31,912 nucleotides of DNA from Lentisphaeria bacterium (GTDB lineage Bacteria; Verrucomicrobiota; Lentisphaeria; Oligosphaerales; Oligosphaeraceae): NCBI GenBank assembly GCA_041670605.1, contig JBAXYW010000001.1, positions 1 to 31,912 of the forward strand, written 5' to 3'. The notes under the pieces were generated by a model that saw nothing but the letters and a program-made list of their open reading frames with translations, was not told where the DNA came from and did no database searches. Both the position numbers and the translations under genes were made by a program. Positions 1,254-28,714 of the stretch are shown piece by piece. Position 1 is the stretch's first letter; the number at the start of each line of letters is the position of its first letter.

Positions 1254-1410
1254 ATGAAACCGTCGAGAATTTGGCAATCCAGACAGTTTCATTGTTGATC
1301 TAAATATCGCGGGTGTCAAGCCTGCGGCCTGTTTATGCGAACCATTTTTTAAACGCATTACTCAGGGCGCAGGATTTATGCGCCCTGAAATTAGGTTAAC
1401 GGAGACTAAT

Positions 1411-4102: not shown

Positions 4103-4103
4103 C

Positions 4104-7590: not shown

Positions 7591-7593
7591 TCT

Positions 7594-8244: not shown

Positions 8245-8290
8245 GATGGGTATCCATCAATCTCTTTTCTATTGGGTGAGGAATATGAAT

Positions 8291-10634: not shown

Positions 10635-10635
10635 T

Positions 10636-10773
10636 TTGGCTCAAAATCGGCTCTATCGGCCAAGCTTGAGTCAAACAGCTGCGCTAAATAGCCAGCATTT
10701 TGAAATAAGTGATTGTAATAAAATGTATTTTTTTTGGCTCACATTTAAATCATGAACCAAGTTGACGAGCCAA
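10636..10773. repeat. Array of TTGGCTCA-like 8-mers in both orientations
   Basis: Exact forward copies at 10636 and 10734; reverse 7/8 copies at 10667, 10753 and 10766; 6/8 copies at 10647 and 10656. Confidence 0.55.
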
Positions 10774-10829
10774 AATGGGCGATACTCCAGAAGTTACGGT
10801 ATACAACGCGGCAGGGAAGACGGTAACGC

Positions 10830-13628
10830 ATGTCTAAATCCGAAGCACAAACGCGCGCAGAGCTTATCGATCAGCACCTTGCCCAATCTGGCTGGAATGT
10901 TAAAGACCCTACACAGGTCGTCGAAGAATTCGACATCTTGACGGGTCTGCCAGAGGGCGTGGATGAACCACGTACGCCTTACGAGGGTCACCAATTCAGC
11001 GACTACGTCCTGCTGGGCAAAGATCGTAAACCACTGGCCGTCATCGAAGCCAAGAAGTCCAGCCGTGATGCCGCCATAGGCCGTGAGCAAGCCAAGCAAT
11101 ACTGCTACAACATTCAGAAGCAGTTGGGCTGCGAGTTGCCGTTCTGCTTTTACACCAATGGCCTCGAAACCTACTTTTGGGATCTGGAAAATGCCCCGCC
11201 GCGCAAAGTGGTTGGCTTTCCTACCCGTGATGATCTTGAACGCTTTGCCTACATCCGTCGCAATCGCAAACCATTGACGCAGGAGTTTATCAATACATCT
11301 ATTGCTGGCCGAGATTATCAAATCCGTGCCATCCGTGCTGTGCTGGAAGGCATCGAGCAAAAGAAGCGTGATTTTCTTTTAGTCATGGCCACCGGCACCG
11401 GCAAGACCCGTACCTGTATTGCCATGACCGATGCCTTGATGCGCGCTGCTCATGCCGAAAAGGTGCTGTTCCTCGTCGACCGCATCGCGCTGCGCGAACA
11501 GGCACTACTGGCCTTCAAAGAGCACTTACCCAACGAACCACGCTGGCCCAACGTGGGCGAAAAACTGATTGCCAAAGATCGCCGCATTTACGTGGCCACC
11601 TATCCCACGATGCTCAACGTCATACGGGATGAGACCCAACATTTGTCACCGCATTTTTTCGACTTCATCGTGGTCGATGAAAGCCACCGCTCGATTTACA
11701 ACACCTATGGCGAAATCCTCGATTACTTCAAAACCCTCACCCTGGGCTTGACGGCGACACCGACCGACATCATAGACCACAACACCTTCCAGCTTTTTCA
11801 CTGTGAAGATGGTCTGCCAACCTTTGCCTACACCTTTGAGGAAGCCGTTAACCGGGTGCCGCCTTACCTCTGCAACTTTCAGGTCATGAAGATTCAGACC
11901 AAGTTCCAGATGGAGGGCATCAGCAAGCGCACCATTTCACTGGAAGACCAGAAAAAGCTTATTTTGCAAGGCAAGGATGTCGAGGAAATTAACTTCGAAG
12001 GTACCCAGCTCGAAAAGCAAGTCATCAACAAAGGCACCAATACCCTGATCGTCAAGGAGTTCATGGAGGAGTGCATCAAGGACACCAATGGTGTACTGCC
12101 CGGCAAGACCATTTTCTTCTGCTCATCCAAAGCCCACGCCCGCCGCATCGAAGAAATCTTCGACAAACTCTATCCGCAATACCACGGCGAACTGGCCAAG
12201 GTCCTTGTGTCTGACGATCCTCGCGTGTATGGCAAAGGTGGCTTGCTGGATCAGTTCACCAACAATGACATGCCGCGCGTCGCCATCAGCGTGGATATGC
12301 TCGATACTGGTATCGACGTGCGCGAGATCGTCAACCTTGTTTTCGCCAAGCCGGTGTATTCATATACCAAATTCTGGCAGATGATCGGACGTGGTACCCG
12401 GTTGCTCGAAACCAGCAAGCCCAAACCTTGGTGTACCGAAAAGGATGTGTTTCTAATTATCGATTGCTGGGATAACTTTGAATACTTCAAGCTGCAACCC
12501 AAAGGCAAGGAACTGAAACCGCAGTTGCCGCTGCCGGTGCGCCTGGTCGGACTGCGCCTGGACAAGATTGAAAAAGCCATTGACAGCGGCCGTGCCGATG
12601 TTGCCGAGAGAGAAGTTGCCAAACTGCGCCGGCAGGTCGCCGCACTACCCAAGGAATCCGTGGTAATCAAAGAGGCCGCCACCGCGTTGGCCCGCCTCGA
12701 CGAGGAAAACTTCTGGATCAGCCTGAACCATCAGAGGCTTGAATTTCTACGCGCCGAGATTAAGCCCCTTTTTCGCACTGTTTCCGAAGCCGACTTCAAA
12801 GCCATGCGTTTCGAGCGCGACCTGCTTGAATATTCGTTGGCTCTGCTAAATGAAGACAAGGAACAAGCCGACACCCTCAAGGATGGCATCGTCGAGCAAA
12901 TCAGTGAGCTGCCGCTCTCGGTCAGCTTCGTAAAGCAGGAAGAAACCCTGATTCGCGCCGCGCAAACCAACCATTACTGGGCCAAGGCCGATGAAGACCG
13001 TTTTGACGAAATGGTAGAAAAACTCGGCCCGCTGATGAAATTCCGCGAACAAATGACCGGTCCCGGCCCGGTGCATCTCGATCTGACCGATGTACTGCAC
13101 AACAAGGAAATCGTCGAGTTCGGCCCGCAACACGAGGCCGTCAGCATCAGCCGCTACCGCGAGATGGTCGAAGCCTTAATTAACGAATTGACCGCGCACA
13201 ACCCAATACTGCTGAAGATCAAGCACGGTGAAGCGGTCACGCTAGACGAGGCCGATCAACTGGCCGAACTGCTGCACGATGAGCACCCGCACATCACCGA
13301 AGACTTGCTGCGCCAGGTCTATAAAAATCACAAGGCCCGCTTCATCCAATTCATCCGCCACATTCTCGGTATTGAAGTACTTAAGAGCTTTCCCGATGAA
13401 GTCAGTGCCGCATTTGCCCAGTTCATTCGTGCCCATACCACACTCACCAACCGTCAATTGGAATTCCTCAACCTATTAGAGAAGTTCATCATCGAACGCG
13501 AAAAAGTGGATAAAAAAGATCTGATCAATACGCCCTTCACGGTCATTCACCCGCAAGGTATCCGTGGTGTATTCAGTCCTGCCGAAATCAACGAAATCTT
13601 GCAGTTAACCGAACGGTTGGCTGCGTAA
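10830..13628 (+). CDS. hsdR: Type I restriction endonuclease subunit R (EcoAI/EcoEI-like architecture)
   Basis: SDYVL...VIEAKK nuclease motif, MATGTGKT, DESH, LTATP, QMIGRGTR, and an EcoEI_R_C-like C-terminus. Confidence 0.95.
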   Translation: MSKSEAQTRAELIDQHLAQSGWNVKDPTQVVEEFDILTGLPEGVDEPRTPYEGHQFSDYVLLGKDRKPLAVIEAKKSSRDAAIGREQAKQYCYNIQKQLGCELPFCFYTNGLETYFWDLENAPPRKVVGFPTRDDLERFAYIRRNRKPLTQEFINTSIAGRDYQIRAIRAVLEGIEQKKRDFLLVMATGTGKTRTCIAMTDALMRAAHAEKVLFLVDRIALREQALLAFKEHLPNEPRWPNVGEKLIAKDRRIYVATYPTMLNVIRDETQHLSPHFFDFIVVDESHRSIYNTYGEILDYFKTLTLGLTATPTDIIDHNTFQLFHCEDGLPTFAYTFEEAVNRVPPYLCNFQVMKIQTKFQMEGISKRTISLEDQKKLILQGKDVEEINFEGTQLEKQVINKGTNTLIVKEFMEECIKDTNGVLPGKTIFFCSSKAHARRIEEIFDKLYPQYHGELAKVLVSDDPRVYGKGGLLDQFTNNDMPRVAISVDMLDTGIDVREIVNLVFAKPVYSYTKFWQMIGRGTRLLETSKPKPWCTEKDVFLIIDCWDNFEYFKLQPKGKELKPQLPLPVRLVGLRLDKIEKAIDSGRADVAEREVAKLRRQVAALPKESVVIKEAATALARLDEENFWISLNHQRLEFLRAEIKPLFRTVSEADFKAMRFERDLLEYSLALLNEDKEQADTLKDGIVEQISELPLSVSFVKQEETLIRAAQTNHYWAKADEDRFDEMVEKLGPLMKFREQMTGPGPVHLDLTDVLHNKEIVEFGPQHEAVSISRYREMVEALINELTAHNPILLKIKHGEAVTLDEADQLAELLHDEHPHITEDLLRQVYKNHKARFIQFIRHILGIEVLKSFPDEVSAAFAQFIRAHTTLTNRQLEFLNLLEKFIIEREKVDKKDLINTPFTVIHPQGIRGVFSPAEINEILQLTERLAA

Positions 13629-13642
13629 TACAAAGGTAAACC

Positions 13643-15349
13643 ATGCTCCAAAACAACCCCGAACTCAAAAGCAAGATCGACCAGCTCTGGAACAAATTCT
13701 GGAGCGGCGGCATCAGCAACCCGCTTACCGCCATCGAGCAAATCACTTATTTGCTATTCATGAAGCGGCTCGACGAACTGGACCATAAAAAACAGGCTGA
13801 CGCCGAATGGACGGGAGAGCCCTACACATCCAAATTTAAGGGTACATGGATTCCGACCGAATACCGGGCGCGGCGAGAAGAAAAAGATACGGATGCTGAA
13901 TGGTTGAAAAAGCTCGAAGATGAGCAGCGCTACGCCATCGATAAAAACACTCTGCGCTGGACTGAATTCAAACACATGCAGGCCGAAGAGATGCTGCAGC
14001 ACGTGCAAGGGAAGGTGTTCCCATTTCTCAAAGACCTTAACGGCGCCGAGTCCAACTTCACCCACCACATGAAAAACGCGGTGTTCATCATTCCCAAGCC
14101 AGCGTTGCTGGTGGAAGCGGTGAAGACCATCGACGAAATCTTCGCAGTGATGGAGAAGGATTCGCAGGAAAAAGGTCAGGCTTTTCAGGACATCCAGGGT
14201 GATGTCTATGAAATGCTGCTGTCGGAAATCGCTACCGCCGGAAAAAACGGCCAGTTCCGCACCCCTCGCCACATCATCAAACTGATGGCCGATCTTGTAC
14301 AACCGCAACTGGGCCATAAGATAGCCGATCCGGCATGCGGCTCAGGTGGTTTCTTGCTCGGTGCGTATCAGTACATCGTCACTCAGCTCGCCATCAAAGC
14401 AGGCACCAAAGACCTAGCTCCAGATGAAGATGGCTTTGTACGCACCTCGGTCGCCGCCGCGCTCACCGAAAATGCCCAAGCCATTCTGTCCGGTTCGCTT
14501 TGGGGTTACGACATCGACGGCACCATGGTGCGCCTGGGGTTGATGAACCTGATGATGCACGGCATCGACGAACCGCATATCGATTACAAGGACACGCTCA
14601 GCAAGAGCTTTGTCGAAGAGTCCGAATACGACATCGTGATGGCCAATCCGCCGTTTACCGGCAGCATCGACAAGGGCGACATCAACGAAAACCTGCAACT
14701 GGCCACTACCAAAACCGAGCTGCTGTTTGTTGAGAATATCTACCGCCTGCTAAAAATAGGCGGTACCGCTGGTGTGATTGTGCCGCAGGGGGTGCTGTTT
14801 GGTTCTGGCGGCGCCTTCAAAACCCTACGCCAGTTGCTGGTGGAGCGTTGCGACCTCAAGGCCGTCATCACCCTGCCCAGCGGCGTGTTCAAACCCTATG
14901 CCGGGGTCAGCACTGCCATTCTGTTGTTTACCAAGGTCTGGGGGCCGAAAGACAAAGTCACCCAGCCTGCCACCAAACACATCTGGTTTTACGAAATGGC
15001 CGCCGACGGCTATTCGCTGGACGACAAACGTAGCAAGCAGGAAGGCAATGGCGACCTGCAAGACATCATTACCAAATACCACGTCCGCAACTCGGCCACC
15101 GACACTGACCGCACGGCGAAATACTTCATGGTGCCGCGTACCGAGATCGCAGACGAAAAGAACAACTATGACCTTTCGCTGTCACGCTACAAAACCGATG
15201 TGTTCGAGGAAGTACACTACGACGCGCCGGGCGTGATTCTGGATCGGTTGATTCAGGCCGAGGTAGGCGATGTGGACGAGACGGGACTTGCCAAGGTGCA
15301 AAGCGGAATCGTGCGCGAGTTGTTGGAATTGAAGGGGATGGTGGGATGA
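13643..15349 (+). CDS. hsdM: Type I R-M methyltransferase subunit M
   Basis: GQFRTPRHII, DPACGSGGFL (motif I) and NPPF (motif IV, N6-adenine). Confidence 0.95.
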   Translation: MLQNNPELKSKIDQLWNKFWSGGISNPLTAIEQITYLLFMKRLDELDHKKQADAEWTGEPYTSKFKGTWIPTEYRARREEKDTDAEWLKKLEDEQRYAIDKNTLRWTEFKHMQAEEMLQHVQGKVFPFLKDLNGAESNFTHHMKNAVFIIPKPALLVEAVKTIDEIFAVMEKDSQEKGQAFQDIQGDVYEMLLSEIATAGKNGQFRTPRHIIKLMADLVQPQLGHKIADPACGSGGFLLGAYQYIVTQLAIKAGTKDLAPDEDGFVRTSVAAALTENAQAILSGSLWGYDIDGTMVRLGLMNLMMHGIDEPHIDYKDTLSKSFVEESEYDIVMANPPFTGSIDKGDINENLQLATTKTELLFVENIYRLLKIGGTAGVIVPQGVLFGSGGAFKTLRQLLVERCDLKAVITLPSGVFKPYAGVSTAILLFTKVWGPKDKVTQPATKHIWFYEMAADGYSLDDKRSKQEGNGDLQDIITKYHVRNSATDTDRTAKYFMVPRTEIADEKNNYDLSLSRYKTDVFEEVHYDAPGVILDRLIQAEVGDVDETGLAKVQSGIVRELLELKGMVG

Positions 15350-16890
15350 AAGTTAAATCCCTAAACGAAATTACAAACCCAAAGCAATGGAAGAACCTTC
15401 CAATCTCAAAGCTGAAAGATTCAGGGTTCCCTGTGTATGGGGCAAACGGAATTATTGGTTTTTTTGACGAATACAATCATGCGAATCCCACCATCGCTAT
15501 TACATGCCGAGGCGCAACGTGCGGAAATATTCACATCACTCGTGAAAATTCCTATATCACTTCAAATGCGATGGCGCTTGATGACCTCGACGAAAACGAG
15601 TGCGAGCTAAATTATCTAGCACAGTACCTTCGATATCGTGGCTTGAGTGATGTAACGACGGGCGCAGCGCAGCCGCAAATAACCAGAGCAAATTTAGAAA
15701 AAGTAACAATACCCCTACCGCCCCTCGACGACCAAATCCGCATTGCCCATCTTCTCGGCAAAGTGGAAGGGCTGATCGCCCGGCGCAAACAGCACCTGCA
15801 ACAACTCGACGACCTGCTCAAGAGCGTGTTTCTGGAGATGTTTGGCGACCCGGTGAGGAATGAGAAGGGGTGGGTCACCAAAACGCTCCCTCAACTTGTT
15901 CTTCCAGGAAAGAATTCCTTAAAGCGGGGGCCATTCGGGGGAGCTCTAAAGAAGGAAATCTTTGTTGAGACGGGCTATTTGGTTTATGAACAAAACCACG
16001 CCCTAAACAATGATTATTCATTCGCAAGGTACTTTGTAACAGAGGAAAAATATCAAGAGTTAATCGACTTCAAAGTCGTGCCTGGAGATGTATTGATTAG
16101 CTGTTCGGGCGTCTATTTGGGAAAGCTATCTATAGTCCCTGCAGATGCGAAGCCTGGGATCATCAATCAGGCGCTACTTAAGGTTTCGTTGGATCCTCGA
16201 AAGATTCGGCATAGGTTCTTTGTTCATGTCTTTGGGAGTCCGCAGTTCAAAGGAAAATACTTCCCCTCAAATCGTGGTGGGGCTATACCGAACCTGCCGC
16301 CAATGTCGGTAATGAAGGAAATCCCGTTTATTTACCCGCCACTTGAGTTACAGCAGGATTTCACGGACCTTTTCGAAAAGGTGGAGTGGCTCAAGTCTCA
16401 GTACCAGCAAAGCCTCACCGATCTGGAGTCACTTTACGGCGTAGTGAGCCAGCAGGCATTCAAGGGTGAGCTGGATTTGTCGCGCGTACCGCTACCGACC
16501 ATGCCGCCCGAAGGAGAACAACCTATGGCTATCGAGCTATCACCACCACAGACCGAAGAAATCGCCATCAATCTGCCCGATAATGAATTAATGTTGATCG
16601 CACTGGAGAATCCAGAGCAACGCCCAGCACTGCTCGGCCACTGGCTGGAGGCTTATCGCGGGCAGCTCGGCGACGCCCCCTTTTCCTTGGAGCGCTTCAT
16701 GGCTGCCGCGCAAACCCGGCTCTCTGAATTGCATCCGGACACTGACTTTGAGTTGGGTTCTGACGACTACGAGCACATCAAGACATGGGCATTTGAGGCA
16801 CTGGCCTCCGGCAAATTGATGCAAGTACTTGACGATGACGAGAACCTAATTAAATTGCGCAAGCGATCTGATCAATGGGGAAGTTGGTAA
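15346..16890 (+). CDS. hsdS: Type I R-M specificity subunit S, two TRDs plus a ~138-aa C-terminal extension
   Basis: TRD1 (PVYGANG...AQPQIT), conserved PLPPLDDQIRIA...FLEMFGDP, TRD2, then PPLELQQDF...AFKGEL ending at 16473, followed by extra sequence. ATGA overlap with hsdM. Confidence 0.92.
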   Translation: MKVKSLNEITNPKQWKNLPISKLKDSGFPVYGANGIIGFFDEYNHANPTIAITCRGATCGNIHITRENSYITSNAMALDDLDENECELNYLAQYLRYRGLSDVTTGAAQPQITRANLEKVTIPLPPLDDQIRIAHLLGKVEGLIARRKQHLQQLDDLLKSVFLEMFGDPVRNEKGWVTKTLPQLVLPGKNSLKRGPFGGALKKEIFVETGYLVYEQNHALNNDYSFARYFVTEEKYQELIDFKVVPGDVLISCSGVYLGKLSIVPADAKPGIINQALLKVSLDPRKIRHRFFVHVFGSPQFKGKYFPSNRGGAIPNLPPMSVMKEIPFIYPPLELQQDFTDLFEKVEWLKSQYQQSLTDLESLYGVVSQQAFKGELDLSRVPLPTMPPEGEQPMAIELSPPQTEEIAINLPDNELMLIALENPEQRPALLGHWLEAYRGQLGDAPFSLERFMAAAQTRLSELHPDTDFELGSDDYEHIKTWAFEALASGKLMQVLDDDENLIKLRKRSDQWGSW

Positions 16891-16893
16891 GCG

Positions 16894-18690
16894 ATGAAAC
16901 TGCTGCGCCTCAAGATTACCGACCCGGCAGGATTTCGCAGCCTTACCTGTGGTTTTGAGCATCACTTCCGCACCGAATGGTCGTTACAGGAAGAACTGAC
17001 CAAGCCCGAAGGCTTCGCCCCCTTCGTCTGCGCCGGACCCAATGGCAGTGGCAAATCCAATCTGCTTGAGGCCCTGGCGGCGATTTTCTTTCAGTTGGAA
17101 ATATTGCGCGTGCGGCGCAGTTTTCTGCCAGAGGTGTTGCAAAGCGATGAGCTCGATTATTCTCCCAAAGGTTTCGAGCTGGACTACCTGATCCAAGTGC
17201 CGCCCGAATACATCAGACCAGATGGACAGGTGTGGGCTAAAGTTGGCGTATGGAAGAATCCTGGAGAATCCGTTCGATTGAATTGGGAGAATCAAGGTGA
17301 TTTCGATACCGATATATACGAGGTCTTCAGGGCTGGCTTTGCGGATATTTTGTTACCCCAATACGTGTTGGGATACTCGTCAGGCGAGAACGAAATCCTG
17401 AGCTTGCCATTCTTCAAGCTGCGCTTCGTGCAGTTCGACGAGTACTGGAATGCTCTGACCCGGCAGTTGCCTTATCCGGGGCACCCGGAAACTCGGCTGG
17501 CCTATCTCGACAATGGTTTTAGCCAAGCCATCCTGTTGTGTAATCTGCTATTTCAGGACGCCGCCACACTGCAACCCTTTCGCGAGGATATCGGCATTGA
17601 GGCGCTGCAGGAGTTTCGCATCATCATCAAGCGCAGCATTGAGGTTTCAGTCGACGTCGCCGAAGGTTTTATGGCGGGCGACTATGTCGAGAAAGGATAT
17701 GTTCAGGACGACTACACTACCTCAAATCCAGCACTGAGAAAGGATAGTGAATCCGGTCGCTACACCATCAATCTGATGCAGCTGCTGGAAGCTAGTTCAA
17801 ACTCCGCAAAGAATTTCGATCCCTTGGTCACCCGCCTGAGGCGCTGCGCCACGCTGAGTTATGTGGACGACGCGAACGACACGCTGATTCTTGACTTTTG
17901 GGTCAATGAAGAAACAAAAAAGGCATTCCGGGCCAATTTTGAAGATGACCCACTGATGCTGTTCCAGGCTTTTCAGGTGTTGCTGACACTCAATCTGTAT
18001 TCCGTGAGTGATGCGCTCAAGTCCGACCTGTACCGTTCCACCAGCCACTACGCCAGTGAAACGGTGCCGACGCTGGCGTCTGACCAGCGCATCATGCGCT
18101 TCAAGTTCGTGCGTTTCAGCAAACAGGGTGTGACACAGCCGATGATGCTCAAAGAATTGTCGGACGGCGAGCACCAGTTGCTGCACAGCCTGGGCTTGTG
18201 CCTGTTGTTTCGAGAGACCAATAGTCTGTTCCTGCTGGACGAGCCAGAGACTCACTTCAACCCAGACTGGCGCGCCAACTTCATCACCCGCCTGCGCCAG
18301 TGCCTCCCCGGTACGGGGAATGTGGGGCAGGAAATGCTGATCACCACCCACACGCCGTTTTTGATTTCGGACAGCAAACCGGACAAGGTGCTGGTGTTTA
18401 AGAAGGACAAAAGTACCGGTGAAGTCAGCATCAGCCGCCCGGAATACAACACGCTGGGGGCTTCGATCAACAAGATCACCATGAGCACCTTCGGCAAGCG
18501 TGAGACCATCGGTGGGTATGCGCAGGAAATTCTAGACCGGCTACGTACCCGCTTCGATGCCGGCAACGAAGAGGCATCCGTATTGATTGAAGAAATCAAC
18601 CACGAACTTGGTGACTCGGTGGAAAAAATCCTGTTGATCAAGGCCATTCTTGACAAGGTTGAGGGTCCGCAATCGGAGGGCAAAGGCTGA
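16894..18690 (+). CDS. Restriction-system-associated ABC/AAA ATPase (PtuA-like)
   Basis: Walker A GPNGSGKS, signature LSDGE, Walker B LLDEPETH, H-loop TTHTP. Starts 3 bp after hsdS. Confidence 0.88.
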   Translation: MKLLRLKITDPAGFRSLTCGFEHHFRTEWSLQEELTKPEGFAPFVCAGPNGSGKSNLLEALAAIFFQLEILRVRRSFLPEVLQSDELDYSPKGFELDYLIQVPPEYIRPDGQVWAKVGVWKNPGESVRLNWENQGDFDTDIYEVFRAGFADILLPQYVLGYSSGENEILSLPFFKLRFVQFDEYWNALTRQLPYPGHPETRLAYLDNGFSQAILLCNLLFQDAATLQPFREDIGIEALQEFRIIIKRSIEVSVDVAEGFMAGDYVEKGYVQDDYTTSNPALRKDSESGRYTINLMQLLEASSNSAKNFDPLVTRLRRCATLSYVDDANDTLILDFWVNEETKKAFRANFEDDPLMLFQAFQVLLTLNLYSVSDALKSDLYRSTSHYASETVPTLASDQRIMRFKFVRFSKQGVTQPMMLKELSDGEHQLLHSLGLCLLFRETNSLFLLDEPETHFNPDWRANFITRLRQCLPGTGNVGQEMLITTHTPFLISDSKPDKVLVFKKDKSTGEVSISRPEYNTLGASINKITMSTFGKRETIGGYAQEILDRLRTRFDAGNEEASVLIEEINHELGDSVEKILLIKAILDKVEGPQSEGKG

Positions 18691-19775
18691 TGCTGTTTGC
18701 CTACACCTACGTTCCGCACAAGATGGAGAGGATGCAAGAGTTCATCGACTTTATCTTTTTTGAGGTGTGGTGCAGAGCACCAATCGGCCTAGTCTTCCAC
18801 CCTGATCTTTTCGATGGCAATCCCGACCTCAAAGCAGTTATGTCAGAGTTCGGGTTTTCTGCGCGAGCGGCAGAGCGCGGAAAGACGTTTTATAAAGACG
18901 TGAAAGCAATCTACGAACTTTTTGCGCCACTCTCGGCACAGGAAATTGATCAATTCAAGCAGTGGTACCTGGGCAACAACGACATTGAGAAGGTTTGTGC
19001 GAACGATCCAGCTTCACCGCTCCTGCGCTACGTCGATATTCCGGCAGCCCACCAAGCCTTGAGCGAGCAGCTCGCGTCGTTCTTCAAAGGGCTGTATTCA
19101 TCGCTACTCGACCTAGTCGCACTTCAAGAAAAAATAGGCAACATCGACGATCACTACAAGACCTTCGTGCAGACCAACAAAGCAGGCAAGTGCCCGTTCT
19201 GTGGAATCAGTGACCTGTTCAGTGAGTATCACAGCAAGCGTGAGGCTTACGATCATTACTTGCCCAAGGCGTTATACCCGTTTAACTCGATCAATTTCCG
19301 AAATCTTGTCCCGGCTTGCCACCACTGCAACAGCAGCTACAAGACCAGTAAGGACCCAGCCTATCCGCCAAAAGACCCGGCGCGGGCGGCTCAGCGCCGC
19401 GCAGTCTTTTATCCCTACACGGCAACGCCCTATGCCATCGAACTGCAAGTGACTTTGCAAAATTCGGATATCGAAAAATTGACGCCGGCGGACGTCAACC
19501 TGCATTTTGGCCCTGCCTCCCTCGACGAAAAAATCGACACTTGGAAGGACGTGTACGGCATTGAAGAGCGCTACAAAGCCAAGTTCTGCAGTAGCGATGC
19601 ACTAGACTGGTTGGAGCAGGTTCGCATCTTGGATAGAGATCACAGTGTCGCGCCTACAGCCTACCTCGTCAGCCTCGAAGAGCAAGCACAAAAGTCTCCC
19701 GTCGCGAATTGCAATTTCCTCAAGAAGCCGTTTCTCGAAGCCTGTAACCAGATTGGCATCTTCGACGCCATGTAA
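18690..19775 (+). CDS. HNH endonuclease (PtuB-like, with a long N-terminal domain)
   Basis: CPFCG...DHYLPK..YP....NFRNLVPACHHCN; TGATG coupling to the ATPase. Confidence 0.85.
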   Translation: MLFAYTYVPHKMERMQEFIDFIFFEVWCRAPIGLVFHPDLFDGNPDLKAVMSEFGFSARAAERGKTFYKDVKAIYELFAPLSAQEIDQFKQWYLGNNDIEKVCANDPASPLLRYVDIPAAHQALSEQLASFFKGLYSSLLDLVALQEKIGNIDDHYKTFVQTNKAGKCPFCGISDLFSEYHSKREAYDHYLPKALYPFNSINFRNLVPACHHCNSSYKTSKDPAYPPKDPARAAQRRAVFYPYTATPYAIELQVTLQNSDIEKLTPADVNLHFGPASLDEKIDTWKDVYGIEERYKAKFCSSDALDWLEQVRILDRDHSVAPTAYLVSLEEQAQKSPVANCNFLKKPFLEACNQIGIFDAM

Positions 19776-20054
19776 AACGCCTCGTTAGCTGGCTGTAAGC
19801 CGAATGGGGGGCTAGTCTTATCTTAATCCTCCGATTTTAGCTTAGAAAACCTGACGAATTGGAAGACAGCGTCAGACTTTTGCTAGTTTTTTGCTAAAAT
19901 GGATTATAGTCCTTACCGGAAATGATTTCTATCTAATTGAATAATATATAATTTATATTTCTATTAGATGCTAAGCCTCACTCATTTGTGGAAAAAATTC
20001 GAAGCCGTTTTCCAATAGTGGCATTTATCTTTAGGATTGAAAAATTAAGCCAAT

Positions 20055-21041
20055 ATGGGACGTGAAGGCCAATGGATCGACCAGCCTGTCGATCAAGCAA
20101 TAAATATCGCAAATTGGAGAGGTGATGATGAATTTGAAATTTATCCAGAGGGTGCACGCGACAAATCACTTCTGATAAGCCCAAATCAATCCAGATATGA
20201 TTTTCTGATCCCTGGTCATCGGTATTTATTCAAGCATGCTTTTCAGAAGGGAAAGCGGTGCCATCCTGATCAATTCTGGGCGGAAATCGTCGCCTATCGA
20301 ATTGGTTGCATGTTGGATGTGCCGGTGCCACCCGCTTTTGTAGCATATAATAGTGACAATAATGTTTGCGGCGCCTTGATCGAATGGTTTTTGAATTACC
20401 CCGATCAGCCAGAAGAGAGGCGGGTTCCTGGCGGCGACATTATGGTGGACATGATCCCAGGTTATGACCGTAAAAAGGGTAAGGAGCATAACTTTGTAAC
20501 CATAGCTCGTTATTTTGCGGTTGTAGATAGAAATTTCTCATTCGAACCCAATTGGCTAATTTTCTGGTGCGATATGCTCTTGTTTGACGCCATAATCGGT
20601 AACACGGATCGCCATCAGGACAATTGGGAATTGTTATGGAACCAAGTACAAGCTAGGCACGTCAGAATGTCGCCTGTTTTTGATAATGGCACGAGTCTTG
20701 GTTATGAAATATTGGAGTCGAAAATGGACGATTTCTACCAACCAGATAAAATGGCGGCCTACATCAGAAGAGGCAGACACCACCTTCGCTGGCAGTCAAA
20801 AGACGAACTGCAATGCCGGCATGTGGACCTCCTACTGGACTTAGCAGTAAAATTTCCAATGTTGAACGGTCGTATCAGAGAAAAACTGGCTTTATTTGAT
20901 CCCGATCGATTACGTTCTATCATGGAAAATTGCAGGCAATATTCCGTGCCGGTTCCATTAACCCAAAAACGTGCTGATTTTATTTGCCATTTAGTTATAT
21001 CCAGATATAGAACCATTGAAGCAGAAGTAAACCAACTGTAA
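20055..21041 (+). CDS. HipA-like/CtkA-like Ser/Thr kinase
   Basis: YLFK, WAEIVAYRIG, FDAIIGNTDRHQDNW (catalytic loop) and SPVFDNGTSLG (Mg-binding motif). Confidence 0.88.
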   Translation: MGREGQWIDQPVDQAINIANWRGDDEFEIYPEGARDKSLLISPNQSRYDFLIPGHRYLFKHAFQKGKRCHPDQFWAEIVAYRIGCMLDVPVPPAFVAYNSDNNVCGALIEWFLNYPDQPEERRVPGGDIMVDMIPGYDRKKGKEHNFVTIARYFAVVDRNFSFEPNWLIFWCDMLLFDAIIGNTDRHQDNWELLWNQVQARHVRMSPVFDNGTSLGYEILESKMDDFYQPDKMAAYIRRGRHHLRWQSKDELQCRHVDLLLDLAVKFPMLNGRIREKLALFDPDRLRSIMENCRQYSVPVPLTQKRADFICHLVISRYRTIEAEVNQL

Positions 21042-21763
21042 TGAACCTGATACGCCATGTTCACCAACCAAGCCGCTTGTTATTGGTTTGGCAATCACCA
21101 GAAGGCAAATCTCGGAAAAGATTTGTTGTTGGTGAGATATGCCTGATCGATGGTAATTGTGTGTTTCGCTATTTACCCAATACCGATGACTTTAACAATG
21201 CTTGTGTCGAAGGATTTATGTGCTATCCGGCATTTCGCAAGCTAAATCAGGAATACAGCGAGAATGTTTTAGAGACATTTTTGCGTCGTATACCTCCCAG
21301 AAGACGTGGCGATTTTAATAAATATCTTGAGCAATGGCGACTGGTACCCGATGCTGTTATATCTGACTTCGCGTTGCTAGGCCACACAGGAGCAAAATTG
21401 CCTAACGATGGCTTCTCACTAATAAATCCATTTGATGGCATTAGTGCACCGTATGAGTTTTACATTGAAGTAGCTGGCTTTCGTTATCAGAAAACCATTT
21501 CTTTAAACGATATTACAGTTGGAATGCCTGTTGCTTTTGTTGTTGAGCCGGAAAATGAACATGATCATCAAGCGGTGAAAATCGAGGTTATGGGTAGAAA
21601 AATTGGCTATGTAAATAAAGTTCAGAGTCCTGCCTTCATTCGTTGGTTAGATAGCAATATAGTTACTGGCGTAATTGAACGTATTAATGGAACCGAAGAT
21701 CGGCCTTTGATTTATATCTATGGCTGCGTTAGTTCTAAACATGCTGATCGGATTGCGGCTTAA
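21041..21763 (+). CDS. HIRAN-domain protein (N-terminal HipA-N/HipS-like region plus C-terminal HIRAN)
   Basis: VAGFRY...EPENEHDHQAVKI...KIGYV (HIRAN signature); N-terminal YPAF...FLRRIPPRRRGDF; TAATG coupling to the kinase. Confidence 0.85.
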   Translation: MNLIRHVHQPSRLLLVWQSPEGKSRKRFVVGEICLIDGNCVFRYLPNTDDFNNACVEGFMCYPAFRKLNQEYSENVLETFLRRIPPRRRGDFNKYLEQWRLVPDAVISDFALLGHTGAKLPNDGFSLINPFDGISAPYEFYIEVAGFRYQKTISLNDITVGMPVAFVVEPENEHDHQAVKIEVMGRKIGYVNKVQSPAFIRWLDSNIVTGVIERINGTEDRPLIYIYGCVSSKHADRIAA

Positions 21764-22084
21764 TAAAACGGATAGGTGCGGGGTCTGATTTTGATAGAGG
21801 CACCCGCATTCTCATATCTGATTGTGTACTGGCAGCTACACATTTATAGGGGTCTGTGATCTTGTGCCGGGACTCACTAGCTCAAAACATGCATCAACTT
21901 CTTATGTAACAACAAAACATCTAGATAGCTTTGATTGGATAGAGCCTTCCGAAGTATGGGAAGTACTATCAAGTTGGCCGCGCGATACCTAGCAATATGC
22001 TTAAGCACCCATGCCCTCCAAACTTTCATTGCTCGAACCTTGCCGTTTAATATCAGGGTATGTTTCGATTTCCACCGCCCCGAA

Positions 22085-22250
22085 ATTTTTCACTATTAGT
22101 GGCACAAAATCCGGATTTTTTCATTAATTGTGTCAAAAGTGGGTATGATGGCTGACATAAATAATGAAAAATCGCTTTAAAATCAATGGACCATTTTTCA
22201 CTAATTCTGTCACCCAACAACTTGGAAGCCTGACACAGATATTGAAAAAT
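22085..22250. repeat. Five imperfect copies of a 20-bp motif TGACAnAAwTArTGAAAAAT
   Basis: 22085-22104 (rev, TGCCACTAATAGTGAAAAAT), 22116-22135 (rev, TGACACAATTAATGAAAAAA), 22153-22172 (fwd, TGACATAAATAATGAAAAAT), 22193-22212 (rev, TGACAGAATTAGTGAAAAAT), 22231-22250 (fwd, TGACACAGATATTGAAAAAT). Confidence 0.85.
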
Positions 22251-22459
22251 CCAGTGCTGCTAAATGTGTTCTTTTTCCATGGGGATAGCACAGCAAATTA
22301 CAAAGCCAAGTGATAGCTCGTGAAGGCTACTCAATGGATTATGCGGATTTTCTGGCTTTGTCTCTAAGGCTTAGGAAATAATGGCGTTTGAATACCTGCT
22401 TCTCTTTAGTTAGTGCAAGCGTGATTCAACAATATGATTTTGATCTAGTGGTTATATGA

Positions 22460-23464
22460 ATGGCCTATGAAAAACCTTGGAAAAGTTACGAAGACCAGTT
22501 GAATCAGTTGATTCAAAGAAGATTGGTCGTTACTCATAGAACTAAAGCTTTAGAATATCTCGAGCGGATTGGCTACTACCGCTTAAGTGGTTACTGGTTT
22601 CCCTTTCGTGAACGCAGTGGAACATGCTGTCCGCTAATCGCACCCATTGGCAGAAAGAAATTTAAACGTGGTGATACTGATCGGTTCGTGTTGGATACGT
22701 TTAAGGAGGGAGCCAGTTTTCAAAATGCCGTCAATTTATATGTGTTTGATAAGAAGCTGCGTTTGCTGACTATGGATGCGTTGGAGCGTATCGAGATTGG
22801 CTTACGGGTTGATATTTCGCATTCGCTCGGTAAAAAAGATTCATTCGCCTATCTGAAACCCGAGTTATTATTTGACGGTTTTGCGAAGAAACTCGATGAA
22901 AAAACGGGCTTAACAGAACATCACGAATGGCTGAGCAAACAAGCGGCGTTGATTTCCCGGTCAAAAGAGGAGTTTATCAAGCACAATAAATCCAAATATG
23001 GCTTTCCTTTGCCTATCTGGGTAGTCTGCGAAATCTGGGATTTCGGGACTATGTCTACTTTATTTGCTGGAATGATGGAAGTCGACCAAGATGCAATCGC
23101 TAAAAAATATGGGGTGAGTAACGGCCGTGTTTTTGCGTCTTGGTTGCGTAGCTTGAATTATCTGCGCAATGTATGTGCCCATCACAGTCGACTTTGGAAT
23201 CACAATATTGTTGATCAGCCCAAATTATCTCATTTAGGTGAAGTGACATGGATTGATCCATTCCATGGCAATGCCCCTCATAGTCTCGCCCGTCCTTTTT
23301 TATTGCTCTGCATCGCCAAGCACCTGCTGAGTATCATCAATCCATGCTCTGAATGGGGAAAGCGGCTGAAGTTGTTGCTTTTAGAGTTTCCCGATTTACA
23401 ACATTTGGGTCTGAACCTAGCTGGTATGGGTGTTATAGACGGTTGGGAACAGTGGGACTGGTGA
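22460..23464 (+). CDS. Abi family (Abi_2, AbiD/AbiF-like) HEPN RNase
   Basis: LERIGYYRLSGY, LY.FDKKLR...LERIEIGLR, P.W.V.E.WDFG, and the HEPN motif LRNVCAHHSRLWN. Confidence 0.9.
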   Translation: MAYEKPWKSYEDQLNQLIQRRLVVTHRTKALEYLERIGYYRLSGYWFPFRERSGTCCPLIAPIGRKKFKRGDTDRFVLDTFKEGASFQNAVNLYVFDKKLRLLTMDALERIEIGLRVDISHSLGKKDSFAYLKPELLFDGFAKKLDEKTGLTEHHEWLSKQAALISRSKEEFIKHNKSKYGFPLPIWVVCEIWDFGTMSTLFAGMMEVDQDAIAKKYGVSNGRVFASWLRSLNYLRNVCAHHSRLWNHNIVDQPKLSHLGEVTWIDPFHGNAPHSLARPFLLLCIAKHLLSIINPCSEWGKRLKLLLLEFPDLQHLGLNLAGMGVIDGWEQWDW

Positions 23465-23928: not shown

Positions 23929-26061
23929 ATGAGCTCAACAACCAATTTCCAGCAACTCGCCAATTTTATATGGTCGGTTGCTGATTTGCTACGAGGGCCT
24001 TATCGCCCACCACAGTACGAGCGCGTCATGCTGCCGCTGACTGTTTTGCGTCGCTTTGATGCTGTCCTTGCGCCGACCAAAGAAGCGGTTTTGCAAAGAT
24101 TTGATTCCTTGAAAGACAAAGATCGGCAATTGGTCGATCGGGTGCTCAACGAGCTGGCTAAGGATGAGGACGGTAAACCACTAGGGTTTCATAATCACAG
24201 CCAACTCGATTTCTACAAACTGAAGGGTGATCCGGATAACATTGGCCGACATCTCACCGACTATATCAACGGCTTTTCTGAAAACATCCGCAAGATCTTC
24301 GAGCGTTTTGAGTTCGAGAAAGAGATTGAAAAGCTGGAAGAGGCCAACCGCCTATACCAAGTGGTTGCTCAGTTTGCTGAGATGGACTTGCATCCTAAGC
24401 ACGTAGACAACATCACCATGGGGTTGGTGTTCGAGGATTTGATCAGGCGGTTCAACGAGGCGGCTAACGAAACAGCCGGTGATCATTTCACTCCGCGTGA
24501 GGTGATCCGGTTGATGGTCAACCTGTTGCTTGAACCAGACACACAAGTGCTCACACAGGAAGGCGTTATCGCCACGATTTGTGACCCTGCTTGCGGCACC
24601 GGTGGCATGCTGGCTGAAGCGCAAAATTGGATTCGTGCCCATAACGAACAGGCCACGGTTAAGGTCTATGGGCAAGACTATAATCCGCGCTCTTATGCCG
24701 TCGCCGCATCCGACCTGTTGATCAAGGGTCATCGCGATAGCCGCATCGAATACGGCAATACCCTGACCAACGATCAATTCCCGGATATGTGGTTCGACTA
24801 TTTGCTGGCCAACCCACCTTTTGGCGTGGACTGGAAAGGCGAGAAAAAAGAGATCGATCGCTGGCCGGATTTCTGCGGTTACAAAGGTAAGCTGCCGCGT
24901 ATCAACGACGGTGCGCTGCTGTTTTTGATACACATGATCGATAAATTCGCTGATTACGAACCGGGGAATAAAGATTTACCGGGTTCCCGCGCCTCCATCG
25001 TTTTTAACGGCTCTCCCCTCTTCACCGGTGGCGCCGGCAGCGGCGAAAGCGAAATACGCCGCTGGATCATCGAAAACGACTGGCTGGAAGCCATCGTCGC
25101 TCTGCCTGAACAGATGTTCTACAACACCGGCATCGGCACCTTCGTCTGGGTACTTAGTAACCGCAAGGAACAACATCGCAAAGGCAAGATACAACTGATC
25201 GACGCCCGCGAGCGCTGGACGCCGATGAAACGCAGCCTGGGCAACAAACGCCGCTATCTGGACGAAGCTGCCATTCATGAAATCACCCGCGAGCACGGCG
25301 CGATGACCCAATCTAATACCAGTAAGGTGTTCGACAATGCCGATTTTGGCTACCGGCGAGTGATTATCCAGCGCCCGTTACGTTTGCGTTTTCAACTGAC
25401 TCAAGAAGCCAAGGAACGCTATCTCGATGCCTGCCCGGAACTTTACAATGCGCTGGTCGCCGTGGAAGACAAACTTGGCCAGGAGGCTTATGACGATTGG
25501 AACAGCGTTTGGGAGCAAGCGCAGGACATTATCAAAGCCTTGCCGAACGACATAGAAGGCTGGGCCAAAGGCGCCAAAGGCACAGCTCAGAAAAAGTTGT
25601 TTCGTGACGCATTCACTGAGGTCGACCCCGAGGCCAAGCCGGTCGTTGCCAAACTGCACAAAGCCGATGCACCGGATACGGTGGCCTTGTTTCCCGGCCA
25701 GACTTTGCAGGAATTGCAATCCAATGTGCTGCATAGCTTGCTGGGCCAGTATGAGGCTGGCAAAGGTAAGTTTTACGAGTACGAAGCCGATCTGGCTCTG
25801 AAGGATTTTGAAAACATTCCGCTCAAAGAAGCTGTTATCAGCTACGTCGAAGGCGAAGTCTTGCCCTATGTTCGTGATGCTTGGATCGATCGCGAAGCCC
25901 TGGACGAACAGGATGGCGGTATCGGTACGGTGGGTTATGAAATCAACTTCAATGGAGAATTCCCGAAAGATAAGATTCAACGCTCTCTCCAAGAAATCGA
26001 TGCCGACTTAATCATGGTCGAAAGGCAAATTAATGAATTCTTGCGGAGGGCTTCACTGTGA
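23929..26061 (+). CDS. hsdM: Type I R-M methyltransferase subunit M (long form)
   Basis: FIWSVADLLRG, GDHFTPREVI, DPACGTGGML, NPPF, and C-terminal VGYEINF. Confidence 0.95.
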   Translation: MSSTTNFQQLANFIWSVADLLRGPYRPPQYERVMLPLTVLRRFDAVLAPTKEAVLQRFDSLKDKDRQLVDRVLNELAKDEDGKPLGFHNHSQLDFYKLKGDPDNIGRHLTDYINGFSENIRKIFERFEFEKEIEKLEEANRLYQVVAQFAEMDLHPKHVDNITMGLVFEDLIRRFNEAANETAGDHFTPREVIRLMVNLLLEPDTQVLTQEGVIATICDPACGTGGMLAEAQNWIRAHNEQATVKVYGQDYNPRSYAVAASDLLIKGHRDSRIEYGNTLTNDQFPDMWFDYLLANPPFGVDWKGEKKEIDRWPDFCGYKGKLPRINDGALLFLIHMIDKFADYEPGNKDLPGSRASIVFNGSPLFTGGAGSGESEIRRWIIENDWLEAIVALPEQMFYNTGIGTFVWVLSNRKEQHRKGKIQLIDARERWTPMKRSLGNKRRYLDEAAIHEITREHGAMTQSNTSKVFDNADFGYRRVIIQRPLRLRFQLTQEAKERYLDACPELYNALVAVEDKLGQEAYDDWNSVWEQAQDIIKALPNDIEGWAKGAKGTAQKKLFRDAFTEVDPEAKPVVAKLHKADAPDTVALFPGQTLQELQSNVLHSLLGQYEAGKGKFYEYEADLALKDFENIPLKEAVISYVEGEVLPYVRDAWIDREALDEQDGGIGTVGYEINFNGEFPKDKIQRSLQEIDADLIMVERQINEFLRRASL

Positions 26062-26633
26062 AGTACCAAATGACACGTGTTAAATACATTTGCCGACTCG
26101 GCTACGGTGACTCTCTTCCAAAAGATGAAGGCAGTGATGGTGATATTCCAGTGTTTGGCTCTAATGGACAATACACCACTACAGCAACACGAAATACTGA
26201 AGTACCGGCAATAGTTCTGGGCAGAAAAGGTTCCTATGGCAAGGTCAATTGGGCACCGAATGGATGCTTTGCATCAGATACCACATTCTTCATTGATAGC
26301 AGACTTACCTCAGAAAATTTGCGGTGGCTATATTGGGCTCTTCAAATTCTCAGGTTAGACGAAGGTTCCCAAGAAGCAGCAGTTCCAGGGCTGAACAGGG
26401 AAACCGTTTATGAGCAGCGCTTGCCTATTCCATCAGACATAAATCAGAAACTGATCGCCAACTATTTGGATCGAGAAATTGCGCGCATTGATTCAGCTCT
26501 TGATCTTGCCGGAAGCCGGTCAGCCATCAACTTCAAGGAAGGGTCGTTGTTAGCACTGCTCTTCGAGCGCCGTTCTGCGCTTATTACTGCCGCTGTCACT
26601 GGCCAGATTCCCATGGAGGAGATGGCAGGATGA
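26058..26633 (+). CDS. hsdS: Half-size type I specificity subunit (single TRD, 191 aa)
   Basis: One TRD (GDSLP...PVFGSNG...GRKGSYG...AVPGLN), then P....QKLIANYLDREIARID...ERRSALITAAVTGQI. GTGA and ATGA overlaps on both sides. Confidence 0.85.
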   Translation: MKYQMTRVKYICRLGYGDSLPKDEGSDGDIPVFGSNGQYTTTATRNTEVPAIVLGRKGSYGKVNWAPNGCFASDTTFFIDSRLTSENLRWLYWALQILRLDEGSQEAAVPGLNRETVYEQRLPIPSDINQKLIANYLDREIARIDSALDLAGSRSAINFKEGSLLALLFERRSALITAAVTGQIPMEEMAG

Positions 26634-28045
26634 AACTGAAAAGTTTAGGGCTGACAAATTTTCGGGGCTTTGATCGGCTGGATATAGATTTTGACGACCG
26701 GATGACTGTGATTGCAGGTGTCAATGGGGTTGGTAAATCAACAATCCTTCAAGCCATCGCAACGGCGTACTCCCACACCTTGCCGGAGTTTACTGTTTCG
26801 CGTGAGAAACCGTTGCCAATTCTTAACACAGACATCCAGCAAGGCAAATCCTCCTGCATCATCCAGATGGAAAGTACCGACTTGTCGGCAGCAAAGTTAA
26901 TCACTTTTCTTTCCAAGGAAAGCCTTAATCACAACGAAAAGCTTTCTCTTGAACACCAACAATCCCTAATGAAAAAGGAATTGCCTCTTCTTGAAAAAGG
27001 GTCGCCCGCTTACAAAAACCTGGATAATGAAATTACCTGGATCGACAAACGACTGGAGGGAAATTTCGAGAGTCGTTTAAACTGGCTATTTACCGATAAG
27101 CATGAATCAGAAGCGCAGCTGAAGCGGCACTGGAAGAACAGCCCAACTCAACCGCTTGTCATTTATTACTCGACAAACCGTTTGCTGTCGAGGTTGCCCC
27201 CAACACTTAAGAGTGAACTACCTTTCAAGCAGGCGGCTGCATTCGCAAAATCCCTGACACAGCTGGAAATATCACTCAACGAGTTCGCTAAATGGCACCG
27301 TGCCATGAATTCGCCTCGCGTAATTAGACAAGACAGTCAAGATGTTTCACGAATCCTGAATTTTCTTCAAGAGGCGATTACTGGCCTCATGCCCCAGATC
27401 AAAGAATTTTGGCTCCATGAGGGCCCCCCTCTTCGCTACTCGGTCATGAAAGACGCGACAATAGATGAGCAGGTGAACAACGGGAAAACAGGAAAGCAGC
27501 TGTTTTTTGAACAATTATCCGACGGAGAGCGTGGCTTGATTGCTCTGGTATTTGACCTTACTCGCCGCCTTGCCATTGCCAACCCGGACAGTGATAACCC
27601 CATTGCCGAAGGCGTGGCGCTGGTGTTGATCGACGAGGTCGAGTTGCACCTTCACCCCAAATGGCAGCGCGATGTACTTCCACGTTTGCGGGATATTTTC
27701 AAGGGCTGCCAGTTTGTTGTTACTACTCATTCGCCTCAGGTTATTGGTGAAGTTGAGGCGAAGTGTGTGCGTTTTTTAGAATACGTTGATGGCAAGGTTA
27801 GTGTCACCATTCCAACAGAAGCTTACGGTATCGATTCGAATCGCATCCTGCAGGAGTTCATGGGGGCTCCGGTGCGCAACCGGCAGGTGGACGGTCAATT
27901 GAAAGCTCTCTTCGATCTAATCGACCAAGAGCGTTTCGACGATGCTCGAGCAGCGATTGCGGATCTCGAAAGCAAGCTAGGTGAAGAGGAACCCGAACTC
28001 ACCCGTGCTAATTCGCTGATCCGCTTTCTGGAGGGGACCGAGTAG
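26630..28045 (+). CDS. ABC/AAA ATPase, PtuA (Septu)-like
   Basis: Walker A GVNGVGKS, LSDGE, LIDEVELHLHPKWQ, TTHSP, and a PtuA-type C-terminus GIDSNRIL...EPELTRA. Confidence 0.9.
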   Translation: MKLKSLGLTNFRGFDRLDIDFDDRMTVIAGVNGVGKSTILQAIATAYSHTLPEFTVSREKPLPILNTDIQQGKSSCIIQMESTDLSAAKLITFLSKESLNHNEKLSLEHQQSLMKKELPLLEKGSPAYKNLDNEITWIDKRLEGNFESRLNWLFTDKHESEAQLKRHWKNSPTQPLVIYYSTNRLLSRLPPTLKSELPFKQAAAFAKSLTQLEISLNEFAKWHRAMNSPRVIRQDSQDVSRILNFLQEAITGLMPQIKEFWLHEGPPLRYSVMKDATIDEQVNNGKTGKQLFFEQLSDGERGLIALVFDLTRRLAIANPDSDNPIAEGVALVLIDEVELHLHPKWQRDVLPRLRDIFKGCQFVVTTHSPQVIGEVEAKCVRFLEYVDGKVSVTIPTEAYGIDSNRILQEFMGAPVRNRQVDGQLKALFDLIDQERFDDARAAIADLESKLGEEEPELTRANSLIRFLEGTE

Positions 28046-28714
28046 ATGCGGACAATCTGTAAGGGCAACGAACCATCCTGTTTGACAAAACATCGGCAGC
28101 AACCACATTCGGATTACGATAACTACACCAATGAGATAGACGCCAATACTGGCAAGAAGATACCGAACACAGGTAAGGATGCCCTGCGACAGGCATTGGT
28201 GATGGAACAACGTGGGTTGTGTTGTTATTGTCAGTCCAGAATCCATCCGAATGAGGATAAAATGAAAATTGAGCACTGGCAGAGTCAGACTGGCTTTCCC
28301 CATCGCCAATTGGATTATAGCAACTTGCTGGGCGCGTGCCTTGGCGGTATAGGTCGCCCTAAGAAAGATCAGCATTGCGATACTCGGAAAGGCGATTCCG
28401 TCCTTTGTTTCAGCGTCAGTGACCCAGCCCACCCCATTGAACGACAAATCAAGTTCTTGGGTGATGGAAGTATTGCTTCTGGGGGTGCTGCGATCAACTC
28501 GGCCTTGAACGATGTGCTCAACCTCAACTCGCCACGCCTCGTGAGTAATCGCAAGGCAGTGCTCGACGCGTTCAAGCAACGACTGGGAAGGGGGAACCTT
28601 AATGCCGCGCAAGAGCTCAGGAAATGGGATGGTTCCCAAGCAGGTGATCTCCCTGAGTTTGCGCAGGTAATGGTGTTCTGGTTGGAAAAACGAATCGTAA
28701 GGCAAGCTCCATGA
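28046..28714 (+). CDS. HNH endonuclease, PtuB/TIGR02646-like
   Basis: LRQAL..EQRGLCCYCQ.RI...KIEHW..Q...LDYSNLLGAC...HCDTRKG. Confidence 0.88.
   Translation: MRTICKGNEPSCLTKHRQQPHSDYDNYTNEIDANTGKKIPNTGKDALRQALVMEQRGLCCYCQSRIHPNEDKMKIEHWQSQTGFPHRQLDYSNLLGACLGGIGRPKKDQHCDTRKGDSVLCFSVSDPAHPIERQIKFLGDGSIASGGAAINSALNDVLNLNSPRLVSNRKAVLDAFKQRLGRGNLNAAQELRKWDGSQAGDLPEFAQVMVFWLEKRIVRQAP

Follow-up and report, generated by a model that had tools for sequence, protein, structure and literature searches.

A conserved half-size specificity subunit with a Gly/Ser-rich insert in its pairing helix in a type I restriction-modification operon from Lentisphaeria

The window analyzed here, a stretch of 31,912 nucleotides (nt) of contig JBAXYW010000001.1 from a Lentisphaeria bacterium, contains a type I restriction-modification operon in which the specificity (S) gene hsdS, at 26058–26633 of the forward strand, is of half the usual size. 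Its product of 191 amino acids (aa) is a genuine HsdS with a single target recognition domain (TRD), encoded in an intact, translationally coupled operon (Table 1). Homologues of exactly this length are maintained in diverged lineages. They carry a 10-residue insert in the middle of the helix by which S proteins pair, and the C-terminal tail of the accompanying HsdM methyltransferase is changed in the same operons. By analogy with characterized half-size S proteins, we lean by a modest degree toward a complex in which two copies of the half-size subunit (S½) join two HsdM to recognize a palindromic bipartite site, the insert serving as a hinge at the dyad.

Half-size HsdS proteins, both engineered and natural, are already known, and a symmetric site is the textbook expectation for them. 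Three features seem to be new: a conserved non-helical insert halfway along the ruler helix, the hairpin predicted for it, and the matching change in the HsdM tail. A limited literature search yielded no description of such a hinge-type half-HsdS variant.

Maintenance and origin of the half-size S gene

The Pfam family PF01420 (Methylase_S) matches the protein once, at residues 3–142 (E 3.4e-8; 34 bits against a cut-off of 22 bits), and PADLOC Specificity_I matches it with E 2.5e-29, the type I specificity profiles being covered over only half their length. In place of the canonical layout of two TRDs and two conserved regions (CRs), one Pfam stretch and one CR match are observed, against two in relatives of 370–470 aa; the NCBIfam search assigned no family. 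Together with the structural model, in which a TRD is followed by helices, these matches agree with the initial annotation, which had read from the sequence one TRD plus the terminal helices. The clean overlaps that it had listed are present at both ends of the gene. The start codon is GTG, with GGAGG 8 nt upstream, and overlaps the hsdM stop codon as GTGA (ctGTGAag), while the hsdS stop codon overlaps the ATG of the next gene as ATGA (ggATGAaa). hsdM and hsdS are separate open reading frames (ORFs) in different frames and are not fused.

The absence of a second half in the vicinity, also remarked on initially, extends to the whole 4.2-Mb assembly (86% complete), in which neither PF01420 nor a profile of this S family detected another half-S or a TRD remnant. 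The only other S gene in the assembly is the two-TRD S of the first type I system of the window (15346–16890). Pairing with other S subunits had been thought conceivable; for this one it is unlikely and was rejected, as its TRDs are 24% identical to that of the half-size protein and its CRs show no similarity. A second TRD hidden in the long C-terminus of HsdM was rejected as well, because the length of approximately 710 aa is common to relatives with a full-length S: HsdM proteins of 709–743 aa pair with a two-TRD S there.

A word-indexed search retrieved ten clusters (at 90% identity) of proteins of exactly 191 aa, with 72–96% identity and 99–100% coverage. Four of them were placed on contigs (loci L001, L090, and L091/L092), where the gene order is hsdM, the 191-aa S gene, an SMC/AAA ATPase gene, a gene for a protein of ~210–240 aa in the ptuB position, and hsdR. 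The three related operons with inspected DNA (L001, L090, L091) have the same 4-nt overlaps and all start hsdS at GTG; homologues of the 191-aa S share its start position. Between the window and L001, identity is 77% for HsdM, 72% for S, and 84% for HsdR. In four 191-aa S genes, synonymous sites are saturated (synonymous divergence dS >1.2 or not computable) at a nonsynonymous divergence (dN) of 0.09–0.24; dN/dS, where computable, is 0.04 for the whole gene and 0.07–0.2 for the helix. The exact length in ten clusters, the four conserved operons, the saturated dS, and the low dN/dS all indicate that the short form is under long-term purifying selection. On the same grounds we rejected a recent deletion remnant, signs of which the initial annotation had proposed to seek among homologues; these speak against it.

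The 191-aa locus was found only in environmental metagenomes, from freshwater, groundwater, landfill, and soil, and no sequencing run with a usable methylome was available for it, only environmental metagenome contigs carrying the locus. A truly disrupted S gene, in contrast to the conserved 191-aa form, is seen in L060 (8953–11503), where it is broken up into two ORFs, one of 325 aa and one of 135 aa.

Full-length proteins of the same operon family indicate where the short form may have come from. In an exhaustive representative search, nearly all relatives at 35–65% identity have 360–460 aa and two matched stretches, and two CRs are present in the S genes of ~60 of the ~70 loci examined that share this HsdM family. 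The 396-aa full-length S P0123, from an operon of the same type as in the window (hsdM-S-ATPase-208 aa-hsdR), has a first TRD (TRD1) 65% identical to the window TRD and almost the same last 26 residues. Aligned to it, the half-size proteins comprise TRD1 followed by the beginning of CR1 and the end of CR2. By this alignment, the deletion junction falls within LL.E.R.ALI, a motif common to both CRs. Deletion between the repeated CRs is the classical route to half-HsdS (PMC3874165). The 191-aa S would thus have arisen within this operon family when, long ago, a full-length S lost TRD2 in frame between its homologous CRs; probably 10 residues were then inserted in the middle of the remaining helix. 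A second half-size group, of 176–182 aa (e.g., P0012 in L002/L003), is built in exactly this way and shows no further change.

HsdM and HsdR are 75–87% identical to those serving full-length S, and on both the HsdM and the HsdR trees half-S operons interleave with full-S operons, so that a single half-S clade was rejected. The nearest neighbor of the window on these trees is L017 from Methylomonas rivi, with an 87% identical HsdR and a 468-aa S. This interleaving indicates that the short hsdS allele has moved between operon backbones and, together with the high identity of HsdM and HsdR, that it uses standard M and R partners. Exchange of hsdS alleles between operon backbones is common.

The region between hsdM and hsdS varies in this family. 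In L002, a non-coding gap of 329 bp (7673–8000) separates hsdM from the gene for the 180-aa half-S, unlike the 4-nt overlap of the 191-aa operons, and no S-like ORF was found in it. In L008, L011, L016, L017, L024, L034, L045, and others, the S gene begins 1–1.7 kb past hsdM, with at least one extra gene between them; in L017, three ORFs of 164–232 aa occupy this position. The metagenomic protein P0122 (392 aa) consists of two identical half-S copies, the second retaining its Met, joined by a Gly-rich linker of ~45 residues, and its TRD is ~57% identical to that of the window. Either this is a covalent "dimer" that occurs naturally, or read-through or misassembly of tandem genes has produced an artefact.

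The helix insert and the HsdM tail

The initial annotation had counted 24 residues between the "ID" and "ERR" motifs of the terminal helix and judged this region about 10 residues longer than typical. The excess proved to be exact: all related S proteins, whether half-size or full-length, have 14 residues at this place, and the insert is an alignment gap in all 180-aa and full-length relatives. Among the top 150 hits listed in the representative search, those aligning across this region are 10 residues shorter, the sole exception being the 191-aa cluster. The consensus of the 191-aa clade here is roughly (A/V)-G-S-R-S-A-T-G-(I/V)-K-(E/D)-G-S. All 11 members of the clade keep G152, inside the insert, and G162, shortly behind it, and most have a third glycine at position 158, where the window S has Asn; with one exception, the equivalent helix of relatives contains no glycine. 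By its sequence, the composition of the insert is not that of a coiled coil. Selection is also visible locally, with dN/dS of 0.09–0.22 over residues 146–165 of the 191-aa S genes. The insert as a recent tandem duplication similar to the TAEL repeat was rejected, since DNA self-identity at a 30-nt offset (0.31) lies within the background of 0.2–0.33. A weak echo in the protein, GS at 152–153 and again at 162–163, is not evidence for duplication.

An AlphaFold2 (AF2) model of the 191-aa S, based on a 57-row alignment, has a mean predicted local distance difference test (pLDDT) score of 89 and a predicted template modeling (pTM) score of 0.87. The TRD is modeled as a beta-rich domain with pLDDT mostly >90. 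The CR is formed by two helices, the second with pLDDT 83–96, separated by a break with pLDDT ~63. The best structural matches in the PDB are HsdS subunits (1YDX, 7EEW, 5YBB, 3OKG, 1YF2, and EcoKI S), with VIA Z scores of 14–16 against 1YDX, 1YF2, and 7EEW. VIA aligns 181–186 residues of the model with 1YDX (11–372), 1YF2 (17–425), and EcoKI S (8–425). These alignments to full-length S cover TRD1, the CR1 start, and the CR2 end and skip TRD2. Residues 126–188 alone match helical hairpins, such as the arm of seryl-tRNA synthetase, and the match with the half-S domain of the 7EEW fusion ends at residue 161. Since the model aligns to both CR1 and CR2 and to helical hairpins, its geometry appears to be that of an antiparallel hairpin.

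As a control, the insert-free 180-aa P0012 was folded with the same 57 sequences. It gave a single unbroken helix of 44 residues (126–169; pLDDT 96–98), aligned end to end with 7EEW (Z 15.9, model residues 1–172) and also with single TRD+CR units of full-length S structures, and had no helical hairpins among its VIA matches. Because the control stays straight, the hairpin depends, in the view of AF2, on the insert and does not simply arise whenever a lone helix is folded. Thus, in these models, the Gly/Ser-rich insert probably turns the pairing helix into a hairpin.

The tail of HsdM changes along with the insert. The last 36 residues have the strong family consensus NR.FF.Y.PPR.L.EID.EL..VE.RI..LL.EVTE, which is kept in eleven operons with a full-length S and in one with a 180-aa half-S. 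The four operons with the 191-aa S all have a divergent tail that has lost FF.Y.PPR, which is the case in none of the 12 others. The two groups share 43% identity in the tail, compared with 70% among the other operons, while the 70-odd residues preceding it are ~70% identical throughout. In solved type I methyltransferases, two M C-terminal tails and CR1/CR2 of S form a four-helix bundle, and deletion of the M tail abolishes assembly (PMC9613975). The confinement of the change to operons whose S bears the insert points to a remodeled M–S interface. Linkage of the hsdM 3' end to the hsdS allele in recombination may contribute to this pattern; however, the four variant tails are only 49% identical to one another and therefore do not represent one recent haplotype.

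Assembly of the enzyme and its target

Published work bears out the initial statement that half-HsdS derivatives dimerise to read palindromic bipartite sites: such proteins pair via their CR helices, bind two HsdM, and read symmetric sites (PMC2877798, PMC3874165, PMC6158711). The half-HsdS EcoR124I-NT reads GAAN7TTC (PMC2877798), the deltaC and deltaN forms of EcoDXXI read TCAN8TGA and GAAYN5RTTC, respectively (PMC3874165), and an engineered CC398-1 half-S is active in both methylation and restriction (PMC6158711); NgoAV is cited in PMC10030836 as a natural truncated HsdS. The window S resembles these type IC half-HsdS proteins (EcoR124I-NT, EcoDXXI deltaC/deltaN) and NgoAV in having one TRD and one CR composed of the CR1 start and the CR2 end. 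The known proteins originate from a deletion between the two CRs, cooperate with ordinary HsdM and HsdR, and recognize symmetric sites. Unlike them, the window S belongs to another type I family, characterized by a long HsdM (710 aa), has the insert in its helix with a co-varied HsdM tail, and is conserved across diverged environmental lineages, whereas they are laboratory or strain-specific truncations.

Two other types of single-TRD proteins are relevant. The M-S½ fusion of Vibrio vulnificus (PDB 7EEW) is the best PDB sequence match of the window TRD (E 1e-5) and is among the top structural matches. It likewise combines a single TRD and one CR helix, but its S½ is fused to HsdM and the CR is one straight helix. 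In Type 1½ (M.AhdI-like) systems, a separate single-TRD S likewise pairs to read a symmetric site (PMC3874165). These systems accompany a type IIP nuclease (PMC6158711), and the window operon has a full HsdR motor-nuclease instead.

We infer that the 191-aa S functions as a half-size specificity subunit in type I restriction-modification and that two copies with two HsdM would form an M2(S½)2 core and, with HsdR, M2(S½)2(R2). Both TRDs would read the same half-site in inverted orientation, resulting in a palindromic bipartite N6-methyladenine (m6A) target. The insert may serve as a Gly/Ser-rich hinge or bulge at the two-fold axis of the helix pair, and the HsdM tails clamping the S helices would have changed along with it. 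A hinge, as opposed to an extra helix, probably gives no simple gain of spacer base pairs (bp): the two segments (~24 + 18 residues) equal the 44-residue helix of insert-free relatives, so that the spacer need not be longer. The M2(S½)2 assembly is the most economical, as HsdR, and HsdM outside the tail, are ordinary members of a family that uses a two-TRD S.

Several observations weigh against this reading. The closed intramolecular hairpin of the AF2 model, taken alone, would favor a monomer; since a closed hairpin and a swapped dimer have identical contact maps, the model of a single chain fits both. The insert is missing from 46 of the 57 rows of the alignment used, and the hinge itself has the low pLDDT given above. 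The changed HsdM tail could mean that the canonical four-helix bundle is no longer formed. The main alternative, in our opinion unlikely, is a closed monomeric S, in which the hinge folds the helix back and the TRD with its hairpin joins a single HsdM (and a single HsdR). Such an enzyme would correspond to the single-TRD enzymes (Type ISP, IIG/IIL, BREX PglX) divided among separate proteins, and would recognize a short asymmetric site with methylation on one strand. A closed monomer is consistent with the confidently modeled hairpin (pTM and second helix), with its VIA alignment to helical hairpins and to TRD1, the CR1 start, and the CR2 end of 1YDX, 1YF2, and 2Y7C, and with the straight control, whose best match is the half-S domain of the 7EEW fusion. 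It also agrees with the two to three conserved glycines of the hinge region, where most relatives have none, and with an HsdM tail remodeled only in the 191-aa-S operons. In domain-swapping proteins, a longer hinge loop generally favors the closed monomer. On the other hand, HsdM outside the tail and HsdR are unspecialized, the latter being so close to the HsdR of a full-length-S system, and the AF2 hairpin may merely mirror the inter-chain contacts of a dimer. We know of no classical three-subunit type I system that combines one TRD with one-strand methylation. Alignments of the AF2 model with the single-TRD gamma-methyltransferase enzymes Type ISP, MmeI/BpuSI type IIG/IIL, BREX PglX, M.BseCI, and CamA span ~160–170 residues with Z of 7–8.6, a range that is not diagnostic. 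All of these enzymes are single polypeptides, whereas R, M, and S of the window are separate proteins.

Lengthening of the helix, and with it of the spacer, had been suggested initially. A continuous helix with 10 additional residues would make the coiled coil of the homodimer ~15 Å longer and the spacer several bp longer than in relatives. The 10-residue excess is real, and in EcoR124I/EcoR124II helix length sets the spacer via the TAEL repeat, likewise a length change inside the central CR of HsdS (PMC3874165). However, TAEL is a helical 4-residue unit adding 1 bp, while the insert has 10 residues, is Gly/Ser-rich, and is predicted to be non-helical. The conserved glycines, the several Ser/Thr residues in and just after the insert, and the break of the modeled helix next to an unbroken control make this explanation improbable, and CR length does not translate simply into spacing (PMC6158711). 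Least credible, at a very low probability, is an inactive remnant, or an S that works only as a heterodimer with another S. The prevalence of two-TRD S genes in this HsdM family and the incompleteness of the genome could be cited for it, but the length is invariant, synonymous sites are saturated at low dN/dS, translational coupling persists in four operons, the genome contains no other S of this family, and the other S of the window lacks CR similarity.

Taken by itself, the finding is another natural half-HsdS, with unusually good evidence of long-term maintenance and of exchange between operon backbones. Its interest lies in the position of the insert, exactly where the "molecular ruler" helix of S should be rigid, and in the accompanying change of the HsdM tail that clamps this ruler. 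If the hinge still permits a 2:2 complex, the system tests how much of the coiled coil is required to set spacer length. If it closes S into a monomer, we deal with a natural half type I enzyme, which would bear on the relationships among type I, IIG, and ISP enzymes and on the engineering of new specificities. It is conceivable, though unlikely, that the insert hairpin and a co-adapted HsdM tail have produced an M1S½(R1) unit complete in itself, which would resemble Type ISP divided over three genes and read a short asymmetric site. Evolutionary models that connect type I, IIG, and ISP enzymes propose such intermediates (PMC6158711), and this unit would be a natural example.

The operon and its surroundings

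The operon has the order hsdM-hsdS½-ptuA-ptuB-hsdR on one strand, with overlapping start and stop codons, and HsdR, HsdM, and HsdS are encoded by three separate genes, hsdR being full-length. HsdM matches the PADLOC MTase_I profile PDLC03029 over its full length (E 1e-251), and its motifs DPACGTGG (S-adenosylmethionine-binding) and NPPF are both intact. The NCBIfam PtuA match of the 471-aa ATPase (E 1e-76) is below the cut-off of that family.

Table 1. Features of the operon with the half-size hsdS (positions in the window)
Feature	Position	Strand	Evidence
hsdM, 710 aa, gamma-class N6-adenine methyltransferase, long-HsdM type I family	23929..26061	+	Pfam HsdM_N + N6_Mtase
HsdM C-terminal tail (aa 675-710), variant without family motif FF.Y.PPR	25951..26058	+	
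Half-size hsdS, 191 aa, one TRD + one CR	26058..26633	+	
TRD, aa 1 to ~125	26058..26432	+	Pfam, AF2 fold, VIA matches
CR helices, aa 127-180: helix 127-155, break 156-160, helix 161-180	26436..26597	+	AF2
10-residue insert, aa 149-158, DLAGSRSAIN, only in the 191-aa clade	26502..26531	+	Alignment
PtuA-like ABC/AAA ATPase, 471 aa, cargo between hsdS and hsdR	26630..28045	+	PADLOC PtuA E 1.6e-120
PtuB-like HNH endonuclease, 222 aa	28046..28714	+	PADLOC PtuB E 2.5e-68; NCBIfam PtuB + TIGR02646
hsdR, 1003 aa	28711..31722	+	Pfam HSDR_N, SWI2_SNF2/ResIII, T1R_D3-like; TIGR00348 E 3e-63

The cargo slot between hsdS and hsdR is exchangeable. PtuA/PtuB-like pairs occupy it in the window (26630–28714), L001, L088, L090, and L091, and a Peptidase_M78 protein with a DUF4411 protein is found in place of such a pair in L002/L003. 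The cargo proteins of the window and L001 are only 44% (PtuA-like) and 26% (PtuB-like) identical, against 77–84% for HsdM/HsdR.

The window as a whole is a defence island beside Tn7-like transposition genes, including a Mu-type transposase and TniQ. Besides these, the regions 1378–8689 and 8985–23464 encode a Schlafen/AlbA_2 protein, a PDC-M03 HipA-like/HIRAN pair, an AbiD/Abi_2 protein, and the first type I system. The first type I system of the window comprises an HsdR with an EcoEI C-terminal domain, HsdM, and a 514-aa S, followed by an AAA_21 ATPase.

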